A DNA stretch of 64,000 bases from an uncultured delta proteobacterium (GTDB lineage: Bacteria > Desulfobacterota > Binatia > Binatales > Binataceae), in assembly GCA_963724765.1 (NCBI GenBank), contig CAVRVY010000001.1, positions 704,001 to 768,000 on the forward strand, written 5' to 3'. The translations under genes were made by a program, and so were the position numbers. The notes beneath the pieces were generated by a model, which saw only the letters and a list, made by a program, of their open reading frames with translations, was not told the DNA's origin and made no database searches. Positions 1 through 5,718 of the stretch are shown piece by piece. Each line of letters begins with the position of its first letter. The stretch's first letter is position 1.

Positions 1-1550
1 GGCTGCGGCGTGTCGCCCTTGTCACGCAGCTCCTTGCGAAGGATTTTGCCGAGCGGATTCTTGGGCAGCGCCTCGATGAACTCGATCGCCTCGGGCCGCT
101 TGAAGCTCGCCAGACGCGTGCGACAGAACTCGCTGATGTCGGCCGCGGTGACGTTCTGCCCCGGCCGCGGGACGACGAAGGCCTTGACCGTCTGTCCCCA
201 TTCGACCGACGGCACGCCGATCACCGCAGCCTCGTCGATCGCCGGATGGCTCATCAGGACGGCTTCGATCTCGGCGGGCGCGATATTTTCGCCGCCGCGG
301 ATGATCATGTCGTCCTTGCGTCCGGCGAAGAACACGTAGCCCTCTTCGTCGATCCATCCAAGGTCGCCGGTCGCGCGCCATCCCTCGGGCAGACGGGAAT
401 CGTCCTCGCGTCCGGCGTAGCCCTTCATGATGCGCGGGGTGCGGATGAGGATTTCGCCGATCTGGCTCGGCGCCAGCAGGTTGCCCTCGTCGTCGCGCAC
501 GGCGACCTCGACGTCGGGCAGCGGGCGGCCGATCGAGTTGAGCCGCTTGAGCTTCAGCTCGACGGTTTTGCTGTCGCCGTCAATACGATGGTCGTCGGGA
601 CCGAGCACGGTCAACGAGGAGGTGGTTTCGGTCTGGCCGTAGGCGTTGACGAAGCCGACGGTTTTGGGGAACGCCTCGATCGCGCGGCGGATGGTCTGAA
701 TCGGCATCGCCGCGCCGCCATACGCGAGATTGGTAAGGCTCGAGAGATCGGTGTTGGCGAACGACGGCTCGTCGAGCAACTGCTTCATCATCGTCGGCAC
801 GACGAAGGCGTGCGTGACCTTCTCGCGCGCGACCAGTTGCAGCCAAGTCTTCGGATCGAACTGCGGCATCACCACCATCCGCCGCCCGGTCCACAGGTTG
901 GTCATCATCGCGGTGGTTCCAGCGATGTGGTAAAACGGCACGCACACTAACGCGACGCCGCGATCGCTGCCGTCGGCCATCTCAACGTTGGCCGTGACGT
1001 AGGCGGCGAAATCGCGAAAACGCAACATCACGCCCTTGGGCAGCGAAGTCGTGCCGCTGGTGTACATCAGCACCGAGACATCCTCGTCGTCGACCTCGAC
1101 TTCGCCCTCATCGACCTCGGCTGCCTTGGCCAGGTCCGCGAGCCGCGGCACCCCGGCCTTGCCCTCGCCCCAGGCCACCACCTTGGCGGTATTGAGCTTG
1201 GGCGACACGCGCGCCATGAGGTCGAGGTAGCGGTCGCCGGCCAGGAGCACCTTGGCCCCGGCGGTGTTGATCATGTACTCGAGCTCGGCGTCCTTGGCGC
1301 GGTAGTTGAGCGGCAGCCAGGTGAGTCCGGCCTTGGCAGCGGCGTAGTAGCCGGCGATGTAGTTGTCGGAGTTGGTGTCGAGCGCGGCGATTATGTCGCG
1401 AGGTTTGAGCCCGAGCGTCTTGAAGGACGAGCTCAGACGCCCGACCAGTTCGTTGAGTTGCGCGTAGTTGAGCCTGCGATCGCCGAAGACCAGGATTTCC
1501 TGATCGGGAGCGATCGAGCCCGGGATGCTGATGAAACTGACGGTGTTCAC
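1..1550 (-). CDS. Acyl-CoA synthetase / AMP-dependent ligase (ANL superfamily); 3' end runs off the window edge
   Basis: Translated by hand because it is absent from the ORF track (no stop in window). GTG start at 1550 overlaps the upstream TGA. Motifs: MYTSGTTSLPKG (P-loop), NAYGQTET, TGDLG, GGENI and LPKNPLGKILR (A10 Lys). Confidence 0.93.
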   Translation of the reverse strand, partial: MNTVSFISIPGSIAPDQEILVFGDRRLNYAQLNELVGRLSSSFKTLGLKPRDIIAALDTNSDNYIAGYYAAAKAGLTWLPLNYRAKDAELEYMINTAGAKVLLAGDRYLDLMARVSPKLNTAKVVAWGEGKAGVPRLADLAKAAEVDEGEVEVDDEDVSVLMYTSGTTSLPKGVMLRFRDFAAYVTANVEMADGSDRGVALVCVPFYHIAGTTAMMTNLWTGRRMVVMPQFDPKTWLQLVAREKVTHAFVVPTMMKQLLDEPSFANTDLSSLTNLAYGGAAMPIQTIRRAIEAFPKTVGFVNAYGQTETTSSLTVLGPDDHRIDGDSKTVELKLKRLNSIGRPLPDVEVAVRDDEGNLLAPSQIGEILIRTPRIMKGYAGREDDSRLPEGWRATGDLGWIDEEGYVFFAGRKDDMIIRGGENIAPAEIEAVLMSHPAIDEAAVIGVPSVEWGQTVKAFVVPRPGQNVTAADISEFCRTRLASFKRPEAIEFIEALPKNPLGKILRKELRDKGDTPQ

Positions 1551-2380
1551 AGTACTCCGTTTCCTCCAGGGCGGCGCGCCCTCTTGGGGGCGGACATGGC
1601 CGCCGGTGCTCGCTCTTCGAGCCTTAGATTTTCGAGCCTGCGTGCGAGCCGACGCTCCATCGCCAGCCCTTCATTGAGCGGCAGGTCCAGGCCGTCCCAG
1701 ACCGCCAGCTTCGCCATCGCAACCCGCTCGCGCGGCAAGCGGGCCAGGCGGCGTGCCAGCACTCCGGCCGCGCGCATCAGCGCCGCGCCAGGCACGACTT
1801 CGGCGACCAAACCTATTGCTAAAGCCTCCTTTGCGTCAATCCAACGGCCCGTCAGGCAAAGATCGAGCGCCCACCCGGGTCCCAGGCGGCGCGAGGCGGT
1901 CTGCGTGCCGGCCACTCCGGGAATCATTCCCAGCCCCGTTTCGGGCAGGCAGAACGACGCATCATCGGTTGCGATTGCGATATCGCACAGCAGCATCATC
2001 TCGAGGCCGCCGCCCACCGCGTAGCCGTGAACCGCGGCGACGGTCGGGATTGTCAGCGCGCGCAGCCGGCCCCATACGTCACGCCGAAAGCGGACCCATC
2101 GCGCGACCGTCGGCGAGGGCGCAGTGCCGAACTCGCTCACGTCGCCGCCGGTGGAGAACGCCGGACCTGCGCCGGAAAGCACCATCGCGCGGACTTCGGG
2201 ATCGTCGTGGATAGCACTGAGCGCGCCGAACAGATCGTCGCGCATTGCCACGTTGTAGGCATTGAGCTGGCGCGGCCGGTTGAGCGTTATCCATGCGATC
2301 CGGTCGCGCTTTTCGAAACGAATCGTGCTGAAGCCCGGCGACGGGGGCGATGGGCGGATGGCATGCGATGATTGCGCCAT
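1547..2380 (-). CDS. Enoyl-CoA hydratase/isomerase (crotonase) family protein
   Basis: Motifs ITLNRP, FSTGGD, AVGGGLE and LPETGLGMIPG. Confidence 0.92.
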   Translation of the reverse strand: MAQSSHAIRPSPPSPGFSTIRFEKRDRIAWITLNRPRQLNAYNVAMRDDLFGALSAIHDDPEVRAMVLSGAGPAFSTGGDVSEFGTAPSPTVARWVRFRRDVWGRLRALTIPTVAAVHGYAVGGGLEMMLLCDIAIATDDASFCLPETGLGMIPGVAGTQTASRRLGPGWALDLCLTGRWIDAKEALAIGLVAEVVPGAALMRAAGVLARRLARLPRERVAMAKLAVWDGLDLPLNEGLAMERRLARRLENLRLEERAPAAMSAPKRARRPGGNGVL

Positions 2381-2413
2381 GGGAGCGATGACCGCGCGAG
2401 CGGACCGGCGGAC

Positions 2414-3967
2414 TCAGGCGGAGAACAAGTCTGCGCCGGGGCTGGCCGCGACCTCGGGGCGCCCGCGCTCGAAGATAACGCGTCCGCCGACGATCGTGAT
2501 ATCGACCGGCAGGTTCATCAGCTCGGCGGGCTTGAGTGCCATCGGACCGCGCGGCAGCACCATAAGGTCGGCAAGGCGCCCGAGCGCGATCTCGCCCGCT
2601 TCAAGCCGGGCCAGGCGGGCCGCCTGCGTGGTGAAGAGCCTGAAGCCCTGCTCGATCGAAATCCGTTCGCTAAGGGAGATTTCGTAGCCCTCGATCGAAA
2701 CGCGCATCGCGGCGGCGGCGATCGCGGCCAGCGGCCGCGCCGGCGTGACCGGCGCGTCGGTGGCGCCGGCGATCTCGAGGCCGGCCTCCAGCAGGCTTCG
2801 CGCCCGATACAGGTAGGGCAGCAGGCCCGGCTCGGTGACGTACTTGGCGCCGCGATAGTAGGAGAAGCCCGGGTTGGTCACCACCCACGCGCCCAAGGCT
2901 TTGAGGCGCTCGAGATGCTCCGGCGTGATCACACCGCCATGCTCGATACGAAAAAACGGACCGCCGTCGAGCGCGGGCGACATCCCACGCGCGGCGGTCT
3001 CCAGCGAGTTGAGCGCGAGTTCGAGTTCTTCGACCTCGGTGCAATGGAAGGCCGAATCGAGTCCGGCCTGGCGCGCCCGCGCGACCCATCGCGCGATCGG
3101 GCGATAGTCGGTCTGGGGACTCTCGACGAACTTGACCGCGGCGAGCGTGATCCCGGCCGGCTGCGCGGCCCGCGCCGCCTCGGCAAGGGCGTCCAGGTAG
3201 GGCGCGCCAAGCATCATCGCCACCCGCTGCGTCACGGCGCGCCCGCTCACCAGCCGCGCCATCAGCGCGACTTCCTCGGGGCCGTTGCGCACGGTCGCGT
3301 CGGTGAACGCGGTGACGCCTGCGGCGGCCAGTTCGCGACTGAACAGACGCGCGCGAGATTCCAGCTCGGCCGGTGTGACGCGCGGCAACCGCCGCGAAAT
3401 ATAGCTTTCCATCCCGGCCACCAGACCGCTTAGCCGGCCCGTGGCGTCGCGCATCAGGACGGCGCCTTCGGGCGGCTTGAAGTCGGGCGCCTCGAGACCG
3501 AGTGCGGCGATCGCGCGCGAGTTGAGCCACGAGGCATGAAGTGTCTGATGGCGCAGACGGAGCGGATTCTTGGGCACCGCCGCGTCGAGTTCCGCGCGGG
3601 TGGGTCCGCGCCGCCCGGCGAGCAGCGCCTCGTCGCATCCGAACGCGCGCAGCCAGTTGCCCGGCGGCGTCTTGCCCGCGGCCACGCGCAACTCCGCCAT
3701 CAGGTCGTCGAGCTGGCGGCATCGCCACAGACTAAGCCCGGCCGCCGCCGACGCGGCCTCGAGGAAATGGAGATGCGAATCGATCAGGCCGGGCGCGACG
3801 ACGCGTCCGGCGAGCCGAATCAGATGCGTGCGCGGGCCGACCAGCGGCTTGAGTTCGCTATACGGCCCGAGGGCGAGGATGGTGCCCCCGGCGACCGCAA
3901 TCGAATCGCCGCCGGGATAGCCCAGGATCACTCCTTCATGCAGAACCAGGTCAGCCTTGAGGGCCAT
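2414..3967 (-). CDS. Metal-dependent amidohydrolase (YtcJ-like, Amidohydro_3)
   Basis: Motifs PGLIDSHLH, FRIEH, GATDAP and GRLADL. Confidence 0.88.
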   Translation of the reverse strand: MALKADLVLHEGVILGYPGGDSIAVAGGTILALGPYSELKPLVGPRTHLIRLAGRVVAPGLIDSHLHFLEAASAAAGLSLWRCRQLDDLMAELRVAAGKTPPGNWLRAFGCDEALLAGRRGPTRAELDAAVPKNPLRLRHQTLHASWLNSRAIAALGLEAPDFKPPEGAVLMRDATGRLSGLVAGMESYISRRLPRVTPAELESRARLFSRELAAAGVTAFTDATVRNGPEEVALMARLVSGRAVTQRVAMMLGAPYLDALAEAARAAQPAGITLAAVKFVESPQTDYRPIARWVARARQAGLDSAFHCTEVEELELALNSLETAARGMSPALDGGPFFRIEHGGVITPEHLERLKALGAWVVTNPGFSYYRGAKYVTEPGLLPYLYRARSLLEAGLEIAGATDAPVTPARPLAAIAAAAMRVSIEGYEISLSERISIEQGFRLFTTQAARLARLEAGEIALGRLADLMVLPRGPMALKPAELMNLPVDITIVGGRVIFERGRPEVAASPGADLFSA

Positions 3968-4061
3968 CAGGGTATTAATCGCCGGAGCATCGAGGGCGAA
4001 GAGAGCAACCGCGAAGCATCCTCGCTTGTAGCCCGGACTCTAGCCAGACCTTGACCGGACT

Positions 4062-4205
4062 CTAGTCCGAGGACGGAAGCGCCTTGGCTTCCTTAATTTT
4101 CATTTCCGCCTCGCAACACTCGATCGCGCCGGTGCCCGGCTTGTTGCACAGCACCTCGGTGCCGCACTTCTCGCACAGGTAACGCTTGCCCAATTGGTTA
4201 GCCAT
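4062..4205 (-). CDS. 47-aa desulforedoxin-like CxxC...CC metal-binding microprotein (MANQLGKRYLCEKCGTEVLCNKPGTGAIECCEAEMKIKEAKALPSSD)
   Basis: Hand translation; below the ORF-track length cut-off. ATG at 4205 with GGGAG about 10 nt upstream, TAG at 4062-4064. GC3-rich codons and a desulforedoxin-type Y-x-C-x2-C-G...CC...M pattern. Confidence 0.85.
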   Translation of the reverse strand: MANQLGKRYLCEKCGTEVLCNKPGTGAIECCEAEMKIKEAKALPSSD

Positions 4206-4340
4206 CGTTGAATACTCCCATGATCGTCGCCAGCCGTTGCCGGTCCGGTGGTGAAATTCGTCTGAGGACCGCTGGCTGAAAATTCAAGCCGTATGGTCCC
4301 CGGCACTTCTTTAGAGCATCGGACGCATTTCTTCAATCAG

Positions 4341-5468
4341 TTACTTCATCAATTGCACCGGTTGTGCGTCGCTTGCAAACGGCAGCTCGCTCACTGCCGC
4401 CGCGAGTTCGCCGTCCGCGTCATCGATACGCACCACCGCGCCCGGCGTCCATGCGCTGTGATGCAGGATCGCGAGGGCGAGCACGCCGAGCCGTGGCGAG
4501 CGGAGCGGGCTCGTGAGACGGCCGACCTCTTTGCCCGCGAGCATCACGCGCGCGTCGGCGGCCGGAACGCGGTCGCCTTCAATCCTGAGCCCCATCAGCC
4601 GCCGCTTCAACGCGCCGCGCGCGGTCGCCCGCTCGACGGTTTCCTGCCCGATGTAGCATCCCTTGTTGAACGAGATCGCCGGTTCCATCCGTGCTTCGAG
4701 CGCGATCGTTTTGTCGTTGGTGTCGACCCCGACCCGTGCAGTGCCGCTCTCGACCCGCAGGATCTCGGCCGCTTCGATACTGATCTCTCTGACTTCGCAC
4801 CGGTCTTCGCGGCGAATTTCGCCGTGCTCGCCGCCCGCCGCGACCAGCCGCGCAACGATTTCTGGCGCGCTCTCATGCCGGGCGAGAATGGTGAAAGCCG
4901 GCGCGTCCCATCGCGTCACCTGCGCGACCAGCGCGCCTCCCTCGGCCTCGCCAAATCGCCACGCGCCGGTGAGCGCCGCCGGCTCGCCCAAAACCGCGGC
5001 TACCGCTAGCGCCGCGTGCGGCCCGTCTATTTGAATCACGTCTATTTGAATCACGTCCTGCTGAATCACGTCCTGGACCACGCCGTCGTCAACAGCGCCG
5101 CCGCTTTCTTCCAACTCGACGTCGTCGGCGACCAGGAAGCGCTCGAGGTGGGCGCGCACGGCCGGCCACAGCGAGCGTTCCATTTCGAGCAGCAGTGCGT
5201 CGGCGGTGGCCCACACGTTCGCCTCGGCAATCAGATGGGCGCGCTCGGTCAGGAACAGCGCCGCGACGAGGTCGCCCGGCTTGAGTCCTTTGATGTCGTT
5301 GCTGCACATCCCGTGAAGGAATGACGCGCGGTCGTCCCCGCGCATTCGGATAATGACGCGCTCGGCGCACAGCCGCACGCCCGCGCCTTCCGTGAGCGCG
5401 CGGTAATCGGCCTCAAGGCCGCCGGTGGCGTGGCGCTCTGGCGCCATCGTGGAACTGATGTAGTCCAA
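4341..5468 (-). CDS. ygfZ: Folate-binding Fe-S repair protein YgfZ/GcvT family
   Basis: KGCYIGQE signature; GDDRASFLHGMCSNDI. Confidence 0.9.
   Translation of the reverse strand: MDYISSTMAPERHATGGLEADYRALTEGAGVRLCAERVIIRMRGDDRASFLHGMCSNDIKGLKPGDLVAALFLTERAHLIAEANVWATADALLLEMERSLWPAVRAHLERFLVADDVELEESGGAVDDGVVQDVIQQDVIQIDVIQIDGPHAALAVAAVLGEPAALTGAWRFGEAEGGALVAQVTRWDAPAFTILARHESAPEIVARLVAAGGEHGEIRREDRCEVREISIEAAEILRVESGTARVGVDTNDKTIALEARMEPAISFNKGCYIGQETVERATARGALKRRLMGLRIEGDRVPAADARVMLAGKEVGRLTSPLRSPRLGVLALAILHHSAWTPGAVVRIDDADGELAAAVSELPFASDAQPVQLMK
5026..5080. repeat. In-frame 15-bp tandem repeat inside ygfZ (DVVQ-DVIQQ-DVIQI-DVIQI-type units)
   Basis: GTCTATTTGAATCAC twice, followed by GTCCTGCTGAATCAC and a degenerate copy. 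Confidence 0.8.
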
Positions 5469-5574
5469 TTTCTGATTCGACTCCCTGCCAATTCGGCCGT
5501 CGCCGGCCCTGACGATTCCAATTCTATCATCGCCGGGGATTGCGTATACTGTTCCCGGAGGCGCGAAACGTCCT

Positions 5575-5718
5575 ATGGGTACATTTGTTTTCGGACTTGT
5601 AGTGGGGTTCGGCGCGGCGCTTGCGTTCTTCGTCTACGACGAGGGCGAAGTCTTTCTCAACCTGTCGCGGCAAATCAAGCTGGTCGCCGGCAAGTACAAG
5701 CAGGAGCATCGCGCGTAA
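5575..5718 (+). CDS. 47-aa small single-pass membrane protein (MGTFVFGLVVGFGAALAFFVYDEGEVFLNLSRQIKLVAGKYKQEHRA)
   Basis: Hand translation; GGAGG at about 5557-5561 and a TATACT -10-like box at about 5545. N-terminal G-x3-G hydrophobic helix followed by an amphipathic basic tail. Confidence 0.7.
   Translation: MGTFVFGLVVGFGAALAFFVYDEGEVFLNLSRQIKLVAGKYKQEHRA

Follow-up and report, generated by a model that had tools for sequence, protein, structure and literature searches.

A tailed desulforedoxin-fold mini-protein associated with one clade of FadD13-like acyl-CoA ligases

Introduction

What is a 47-codon gene with a cysteine ribbon and an aspartate-terminated tail doing in a cluster of acyl-coenzyme A (CoA) enzymes? 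The question arises from a 64,000-nucleotide stretch of an uncultured Binatia genome (contig CAVRVY010000001.1, positions 704,001 to 768,000), which we refer to as the window. Near its start, a first-pass annotation made from the sequence alone had noted the small gene and, behind it, genes for an amidohydrolase, a crotonase and an adenylating enzyme. It offered three roles for the product: a covalent carrier loaded by the adenylating enzyme and unloaded by the amidohydrolase, a chaperone of the ligase, or a small electron or metal carrier. Here, we call the 47-residue protein dx47, a 39-residue paralog from the same genome dx39, and the genome itself G000. Comparative sequence analysis indicates that dx47 supplies the tailed half of a bipartite mini-protein with the desulforedoxin fold, and that this pair is linked to CoA-thioester enzymes and to a single clade of FadD13-like acyl-CoA ligases of the ANL (class I adenylate-forming) type.

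Results

The dx47 gene

The gene and the site that precedes it are located as follows.

4062..4205 (stop included), minus strand: dx47, 47 codons, with a GKR motif, a CxxC...CC pattern, Cys20 and the tail KEAKALPSSD
4215..4219, minus strand: Shine-Dalgarno-like GGGAG (plus-strand CTCCC), 9 nt upstream of the dx47 ATG, by direct reading

The cysteines of dx47 form two pairs, C11/C14 and C30/C31, spaced so that 15 residues separate C14 from C30, and a fifth cysteine stands at position 20. The protein ends in LPSSD, which the stop codon follows. The sequence thus bears out each feature first ascribed to this open reading frame: the ribosome-binding site, the CxxC-x15-CC core, the additional cysteine and the LPSSD end. 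A protein search with dx47 yielded 106 candidates in the range 25-83 aa; every one of the 106 matched at E<=0.01, and nearly all are exactly 47 aa long. Whether homologs keep the acidic PSSD-type end had been put forward as a check, and they do: 101 of the 106 end in LP[SAT][SA]D, and the terminal Asp stands directly before the stop in all 160 loci that we fetched (80 from Binatia and 80 non-Binatia loci from metagenomes). The five homologs that lack the tail motif comprise one each that is frameshifted, read-through, truncated, desulfoferrodoxin-like and 39 aa long.

The pairwise mean diversity of dx47 at the three codon positions is 0.141/0.093/0.425 across the 80 Binatia loci, and that of the five tail codons is 0.14/0.064/0.669 across all loci with a complete 141-base match. 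The low values at the first two codon positions extend into the tail, which is therefore translated and, like the rest of the protein, subject to purifying selection. Judged by its sequence, dx47 as a whole is a genuine, strongly conserved gene. Public records name some of its relatives hypothetical protein, desulforedoxin or desulfoferrodoxin.

A second gene and the desulforedoxin fold

A search of the window's own genome placed the paralog ahead of the window start.

G000:C1:703064-703183 (~820-940 bases before window position 1), minus strand: dx39, 39-aa desulforedoxin paralog; PF06397 at 34.3 bits

dx39 is of the classical desulforedoxin type, without the extra Cys and without the tail. 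The G000 genes run on one strand, with short gaps or overlaps, in the order dx47, amidohydrolase, crotonase, ligase, second crotonase, dx39. A dx39-type gene accompanies dx47 in 142 of the 160 fetched loci. Outside Binatia, dx39 lies directly upstream of dx47 in 76 of 80 loci, with gaps of 2-57 nt, and three of the four loci without an adjacent upstream dx39 end at a contig edge. Within Binatia, it lies no more than 8 kb downstream of dx47 in 60 of 62 evaluable loci.

The two genes are also joined in nature. A profile search of 1.84 billion representatives returned 1173 proteins at E<=0.001 and 329 at E<=1e-10; from 143 newly listed representatives we took the 118 that end in [SAGT][SAGT]D as a tail-bearing set, for which the terminal Asp is therefore a selection rule. 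Two desulforedoxin-like stretches are present in 46 of these 118. Such fusions, in the order dx39-dx47, are common and occur in many lineages, and the tail domain in them is always C-terminal. Solved desulforedoxin is a homodimer, and dx39 and dx47 most likely form a heterodimer that imitates it. A third architecture was seen as well, in which an unrelated N-terminal domain of ~60 residues is fused to one tailed dx47-like domain (P0180, P0182, P0189, P0190, P0195, P0205, P0219, P0232, P0246 and P0255). The search for longer proteins with a dx47 domain revealed no ligase fusion. One apparent dx47-amidohydrolase fusion (P0121) is a single member with a garbled C-terminal part, and we took it as a read-through or assembly error.

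The fold assignment draws on domain scans and on structure prediction. PF06397 (the desulfoferrodoxin N-terminal domain) was the sole family matched by dx47 in a Pfam scan at E<=0.1, at 20.1 bits (19.1 in a second scan) against a cut-off of 23, and an NCBIfam scan returned desulfoferrodoxin models only. The Pfam cut-off is passed by the dx47 relative P0108 (30.7 bits) and by dx39. An AlphaFold2 (AF2) model of dx47 has a predicted local distance difference test (pLDDT) score of 78.7 overall and of 54 for the last ten residues. Its best match in the PDB is desulforedoxin (1dxg_A), with a root-mean-square deviation (RMSD) of 0.9 over 33 columns at 36% identity, a template modelling (TM) score of 0.82 on the target and an E-value of 0.027. 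The model of a fused form, P0127, reaches a pLDDT of 83.7 and a predicted TM-score (pTM) of 0.73, with low confidence in the linker alone, and its tail domain matches 1cfw_A (Z 4.6, RMSD 0.4 over 36 residues). When this two-domain model was used for a fold search, no solved two-domain relative was returned; the matches were to a single desulforedoxin domain only, with the other rows at Z<=3.6. The models thus predict that the core of dx47 is a desulforedoxin fold and that its last ten residues are a flexible tail. Where the cysteines are kept as in the window, they probably hold a structural metal.

One fragment stands apart from these proteins. P0095 (80 aa) has a dx47-like start, with 81% identity over the core and the extra Cys included, which is followed by the desulfoferrodoxin iron-binding domain (PF01880) and no tail. 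Its contig has only 576 bases, and the fragment could represent a genuine relative of superoxide reductase or else a chimera.

What the family conserves

Terminal Asp is present in 119 of the 143 newly listed representatives, and most of the others look truncated, frameshifted or read through. Retention of the remaining features in the 118 tail-bearing representatives is as follows.

G6: kept in 116
K7: kept in 110
R8: kept in 117
P44: kept in 105
C11: kept in 82
C14: kept in 82
C30: kept in 95
C31: kept in 52
Extra C20: kept in 87; Val in 22
All four ligand Cys in the tail domain: 49
No ligand Cys in the tail domain: 20

The residues ahead of the terminal Asp are small: S45 is found in 100 of the 118 and S46 in 92, and A, G or T otherwise. 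Cultured bacteria offer a second view of the family. A tblastn search of plasmids with a fused form gave 19 records from Rhodococcus, Streptomyces, Sphingobium, Sphingomonas and Mycobacterium, of which we read nine annotated regions; the fused gene is labelled hypothetical protein in every annotated record. In none of these nine fused proteins does the tail domain have any of the four ligand cysteines, and C20 is missing from six, yet all nine retain GKRY and an end of the form ...PLP[AS]SD. Because the cysteines are often lost while GKR and the tail are nearly invariant, the family is defined by its GKR motif and terminal tail and not by its metal site.

This pattern bears directly on the possibility that dx47 is a plain desulforedoxin-type Fe(Cys)4 or Zn protein that carries electrons or metal for a redox step, with its neighbourhood reflecting co-regulation only. 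The window protein itself would suit such a role, with its CxxC...CC tetrad and desulforedoxin fold, and so would dx39, which scores over the Pfam cut-off; some relatives are annotated as desulforedoxin or desulfoferrodoxin, a 2-hydroxyglutaryl-CoA dehydratase D-component is encoded in 10 of the 80 non-Binatia loci, and a ferredoxin gene lies beside the ligase gene in some plasmid loci. Set against this, the complete ligand set survives in fewer than half of the tail domains and is missing from every plasmid fusion, no oxidoreductase gene lies between dx47 and dx39 in G000, and GKR and the tail, the most conserved features, are left without an explanation. We therefore consider an electron or metal carrier, the last of the three roles originally offered, to be disfavoured as the conserved function and very improbable as an account of the family. 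A narrower chemical role, in which Cys20 would serve family-wide as an acyl- or sulfur-carrying thiol, was rejected as well: this residue was invariant in the first 45 aligned sequences, yet it is kept in only 87 of the 118 representatives, and Val, Ala or Gly takes its place in six of the nine plasmid proteins.

Linkage to one ligase clade

The genes that follow dx47 in the window are listed here in their order on the minus strand.

2414..3967, minus strand: Amidohydro_3 (YtcJ-like) metal-dependent hydrolase, 517 aa, 233.8 bits
1547..2380, minus strand: crotonase/enoyl-CoA hydratase, 277 aa, ECH_1 at 178 bits
1..1550, minus strand: ANL acyl-CoA ligase, 517 aa, AMP-binding at 277 bits; the last codon and stop lie before the window
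1..25, minus strand: second crotonase, 264 aa, first codons only in the window; its start overlaps the ligase 3' end

Pfam matches and the sequence itself confirm the enzyme order reported at first, including the overlap of the crotonase stop with the GTG start of the ligase as GTGA at 1547-1550. In the 62 Binatia loci with enough downstream sequence, we found the amidohydrolase in 56, the crotonase in 58, the ligase in 59, and crotonase and ligase together in 58; the Amidohydro_3 gene is missing directly downstream of dx47 in the other six. This synteny is strong but phylogenetically shallow; the more distant loci carry more weight.

Beyond Binatia, neighbourhoods were counted within 6 kb in 30 evaluable loci, dereplicated by dx47 sequence. 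CoA-thioester or amidohydrolase genes are present in 24 of them, distributed as follows.

CaiB-type transferases: 19/30
Amidohydro_3: 14/30 (missing in 16/30)
Crotonase: 14/30
Family I CoA-transferase subunits: 12-13/30

When the enzymes from these loci were compared with all proteins of G000, they led back to the window. A non-Binatia ligase has the window ligase as its best match (482 bits versus 204 for the next), a non-Binatia crotonase has the crotonase at 1547..2380 (226 versus 175 bits), and for non-Binatia amidohydrolases the window Amidohydro_3 protein is the single match in the genome.

The plasmid regions give a similar picture. An ANL ligase is the immediate same-strand neighbour of the fused gene, 2-59 nt away, in eight of the nine regions (Rhodococcus, Mycobacterium, Streptomyces, Sphingomonas and Sphingobium), and CaiB-type transferases, crotonases, short-chain dehydrogenases/reductases (SDRs), thiolases and acyl-CoA dehydrogenases are encoded around it. 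For all eight ligases the window ligase is the best match in G000, at 285-317 bits against 90-140 for the next. No homolog of the window amidohydrolase was found in the nine loci. A protein atlas search with the fused P0203 returned only clusters named hypothetical protein, mostly from Actinomycetota.

Phyletic distribution points in the same direction. In an even sample of 121 genomes from the window's phylum, dx47 is present in seven, and ligase matches of at least 494 bits (47-57% identity) occur in exactly the same seven, with the next best anywhere at 393 bits; in each of the seven, ligase and dx47 genes share a contig and lie within ~3 kb. Adjacency to the same ligase and crotonase clade, the other property proposed at the outset as a check on homologs, is therefore borne out, with crotonase and ligase together in 58 of 62 Binatia loci and the ligase next to the fused gene in eight of nine plasmid regions and close to dx47 in seven of seven genomes.

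The ligase clade also has a structural signature of its own. A conserved insertion of ~12 residues (LGP-D/E-DH-R ... RL) follows motif A5, between A5 and A6, at residues ~316-337. It is present in all 13 aligned clade members, which represent four lineages, and absent from four G000 paralogs and from PDB 8WEU, the closest solved structure.

Two further features of the non-Binatia loci were recorded. A conserved protein of ~197 aa with no Pfam match is encoded beside Amidohydro_3 in 12 of the 80 loci (for example L116:12093-12686, minus strand) and has no homolog in G000. The 2-hydroxyglutaryl-CoA dehydratase D-component genes lie near family I CoA-transferase subunits (for example L099:30-1205, minus strand), and their loci represent an anaerobic 2-hydroxyacyl-CoA pathway context, unlike that of the window.

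A proposed partner of the ligase

We propose, with roughly even confidence, that the mini-protein is a small non-catalytic partner of this ligase clade, or of the CoA-activation step, which acts through its tail and is MbtH-like in role. In such a mechanism, the dx39 and dx47 pair, or the fusion, would dock on the ligase through the N-proximal GKR motif. The flexible C-terminal tail, with its small-small-Asp end and free carboxylate, would provide a second docking element, and the metal site, where retained, would be structural. On the ligase, the A5 insertion is a candidate docking site. Physical binding, a role for the tail and an effect on the ligase are what we infer here; the gene, its fold, the pairing, the conservation of GKR and tail and the co-occurrence with the ligase are what the comparisons above show. 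Co-occurrence with the ligase clade makes a ligase chaperone or partner the best supported of the three roles first suggested. A complex prediction for ligase and dx47 scored 0.02 against a mark of 0.32 and, run without controls, counts neither for nor against binding.

Several observations weigh against this proposal. An ANL ligase was found within 6 kb in only 7 of the 30 evaluable non-Binatia loci; elsewhere among these loci, CoA-transferases of families I and III take its place beside the pair. Three of the 30 loci have a FolE/PALP/UPF0047 context, and another three have none of the listed families nearby. Within Binatia, two of the 62 loci (L055 and L062) contain dx47 and the amidohydrolase with no crotonase, ligase or dx39 within 10 kb downstream, and the ninth plasmid locus, from R. 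gordoniae, has a hydrolase and an FAD-oxidoreductase as neighbours. The seven co-occurring genomes belong to six families that are related to one another, and they cannot be counted as independent events. A shared gene neighbourhood indicates a shared pathway, not a physical complex. Finally, the window protein keeps all four ligand cysteines and Cys20, so in this lineage a metal or redox function may exist.

The same loci invite a broader view, in which the mini-protein is a scaffold, adaptor or regulator of the whole CoA pathway, whether as a tether between a CoA-activating enzyme and the one that acts after it, as a CoA-binding protein through GKR, or with its tail as a pseudo-substrate plug of an active site. 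Its role would then be comparable to that of the Zn-ribbon/OB-fold (DUF35) proteins found with thiolases. The 23 of 30 non-Binatia loci without a ligase within 6 kb speak for it; many of them have family I CoA-transferase subunits on one side of the pair and two CaiB-type transferases on the other. In Sphingomonas and Sphingobium the mini-protein gene lies between a CoA transferase and the ligase, crotonases recur across all lineages, and Zn-ribbon OB-fold genes stand by thiolases in two of the same plasmid loci, indicating that small adaptors are used in such clusters. A pathway-wide role accounts less well for the exact phyletic match with the ligase clade in seven of seven genomes, or for the plasmid loci, where the ligase is the direct neighbour in eight of nine and the other enzymes vary. 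We regard it as unlikely.

The tail raises a more specific possibility, namely that it is itself a substrate. The ANL ligase would adenylate the carboxylate of the C-terminal Asp, and the tail would then carry a substrate amine, or CoA as an aspartyl thioester; the mini-protein could hand CoA or substrate on to CaiB-type transferases and crotonases. The Asp is strictly terminal (160 of 160 loci and 119 of 143 representatives), the small residues ahead of it would suit a tail that enters a narrow tunnel, the tail is predicted to be flexible (pLDDT 54), fusions always leave its end free, and the adjoining enzyme is adenylate-forming. There are precedents for parts of this chemistry: LysW, ubiquitin-like sulfur carriers, Pup and MccA are small proteins with an ATP-activated C-terminal carboxylate, and an aspartyl-CoA thioester is part of the mechanism of family III CoA-transferases. 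We know of no ANL enzyme, however, that activates a protein C-terminus. The neighbours are standard enzymes of free CoA thioesters (crotonases, CaiB-type and family I CoA-transferases, acyl-CoA dehydrogenases and thiolases) that vary by lineage, whereas the LysW system has a pathway fitted throughout to its carrier. Of the 30 evaluable non-Binatia loci, 23 have no ligase within 6 kb. For the covalent carrier as first conceived, the terminal Asp is kept, but unloading by the amidohydrolase is poorly supported, as that enzyme is not universal: its gene is missing directly downstream in 6 of 62 Binatia loci and within 6 kb in 16 of 30 non-Binatia loci, and all nine plasmid loci lack a homolog. 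On balance, we consider a covalently loaded tail improbable.

Other genes and repeats at the window locus

One further gene shares the strand of dx47 in this part of the window.

4341..5468, minus strand: YgfZ/GcvT-like folate-binding protein, 135 nt upstream of dx47

Its presence qualifies the view that dx47 heads the cluster: the enzyme genes do follow it, but with a same-strand gene so close upstream, dx47 is not necessarily the first in the transcript. Neither a promoter-like site nor a terminator on the minus strand was detected when 3800-5700 was scanned for both. A search for sequencing data that cover window 1-5500 gave no RNA data set and 20 DNA data sets with shares of 0.50 or less. 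The YgfZ-like gene is upstream of dx47 in all 75 evaluable Binatia loci, in none of the 80 non-Binatia loci and in no plasmid locus. We accordingly rejected a link between YgfZ, as an Fe-S protein, and the mini-protein in favour of lineage synteny; the YgfZ/GcvT-like gene is probably a Binatia-only neighbour and not part of the system.

Within this gene lies a 15-nt tandem repeat (window 5024-5072, 3.3 copies, 88% matches) that encodes a DVIQ-type peptide repeat, and in a Binatia relative (L008) the match to the YgfZ/GcvT-like protein is split in two near the repeat position. PDB sequence searches with the cluster enzymes yielded generic names only: FadD13 or feruloyl-CoA synthetase, EchA8, and an uncharacterised metal-dependent hydrolase. 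The neighbouring genes in two plasmid loci suggest aromatic-acid or phenylpropionate-type acids as candidate substrates.

Discussion

The family described here appears, on comparative grounds, to be an undescribed and widespread variant of the desulforedoxin fold with a specific enzyme association. From Binatia and Dehalococcoidia-like bacteria to Actinomycetota and Alphaproteobacteria, the mini-protein appears to accompany a single ligase clade. Few enzymes have been studied and engineered as much as the ANL acyl-CoA ligases, and the stand-alone ones are assumed to act alone. If the partner role proposed above is correct, these ligases would have an accessory factor of a new kind in the mini-protein, which could account for failed expression or assay of such ligases alone, and it would give a function to a widespread family that is now called hypothetical protein or mislabelled as desulforedoxin or desulfoferrodoxin. 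Were the tail instead loaded covalently, this would be the first ANL activation of a protein C-terminus, and the result would be a protein-borne activated carboxylate, like those of LysW and the ubiquitin-like carriers, loaded by an enzyme of the acyl-CoA-synthetase type. Fused versions in cultured Rhodococcus, Streptomyces and sphingomonads make the question accessible to bench testing. The family also illustrates how a metal-binding fold can retain its shape and its partner despite the loss of its metal ligands.

Search listings gave us no literature that links desulforedoxin-type proteins to acyl-CoA enzymes or to a CoA ligase, and nothing relevant on MbtH or acyl-CoA synthetase accessory proteins or on small proteins of Binatia acyl-CoA metabolism; the listings on 'desulforedoxin-like' proteins concerned oxygen tolerance in C. 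difficile.

The closest relative in structure is the desulforedoxin of Desulfovibrio gigas (1DXG/1CFW), together with the desulfoferrodoxin N-terminal domain (PF06397), which has the same small fold and the same CxxC...CC spacing as dx47. The differences lie in organization and context. Two copies of the fold make up the unit in both cases, as a homodimer in desulforedoxin and as two different genes (39 and 47 aa) or a fusion in the dx family. The 47-aa half is extended at its C-terminus by a tail of 10 residues with Asp as the last, and it usually has an extra Cys. Much of the dx family can do without the metal ligands, and dx47 itself falls below the Pfam cut-off. The genomic partner is an ANL acyl-CoA ligase and not the redox genes of a sulfate reducer.

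LysW and related amino-group carrier proteins (AmCPs) likewise combine a small Cys-ribbon globule with a flexible tail and a conserved terminal acidic residue. The dx47 tail, however, is not acid-rich, and its neighbours act on CoA thioesters. Neither the Pfam (E<=0.1) nor the NCBIfam scan of dx47 indicated a relationship to LysW. An ATP-grasp ligase of the LysX/ArgX type was likewise not found among the scanned cluster genes inside the window, the ten non-Binatia and eight further neighbour families that were scanned, or the nine annotated plasmid loci.

Zn-ribbon/OB-fold (DUF35) proteins, which function as scaffolds with thiolases, resemble the mini-protein in being small, partly Cys-ribbon, non-catalytic and encoded inside CoA-thioester catabolic clusters. 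They differ in fold and in partner, which is a thiolase; dx47 has no OB domain, and DUF35 proteins have no tail motif.

The nearest parallel in role, as we propose it, is with the MbtH-like proteins. These are likewise ~5-10 kDa in size and are encoded beside, and co-distributed with, an enzyme of the ANL superfamily. dx47 is unrelated to them in sequence and fold, and the Pfam scan (E<=0.1) contained no MbtH family match. Whereas MbtH-like proteins are partners of nonribosomal peptide synthetase (NRPS) adenylation domains, the dx pair would serve a FadD13-like acyl-CoA ligase that stands alone and is encoded in catabolic clusters, and the dx unit is built in two parts, with a conserved C-terminal tail.

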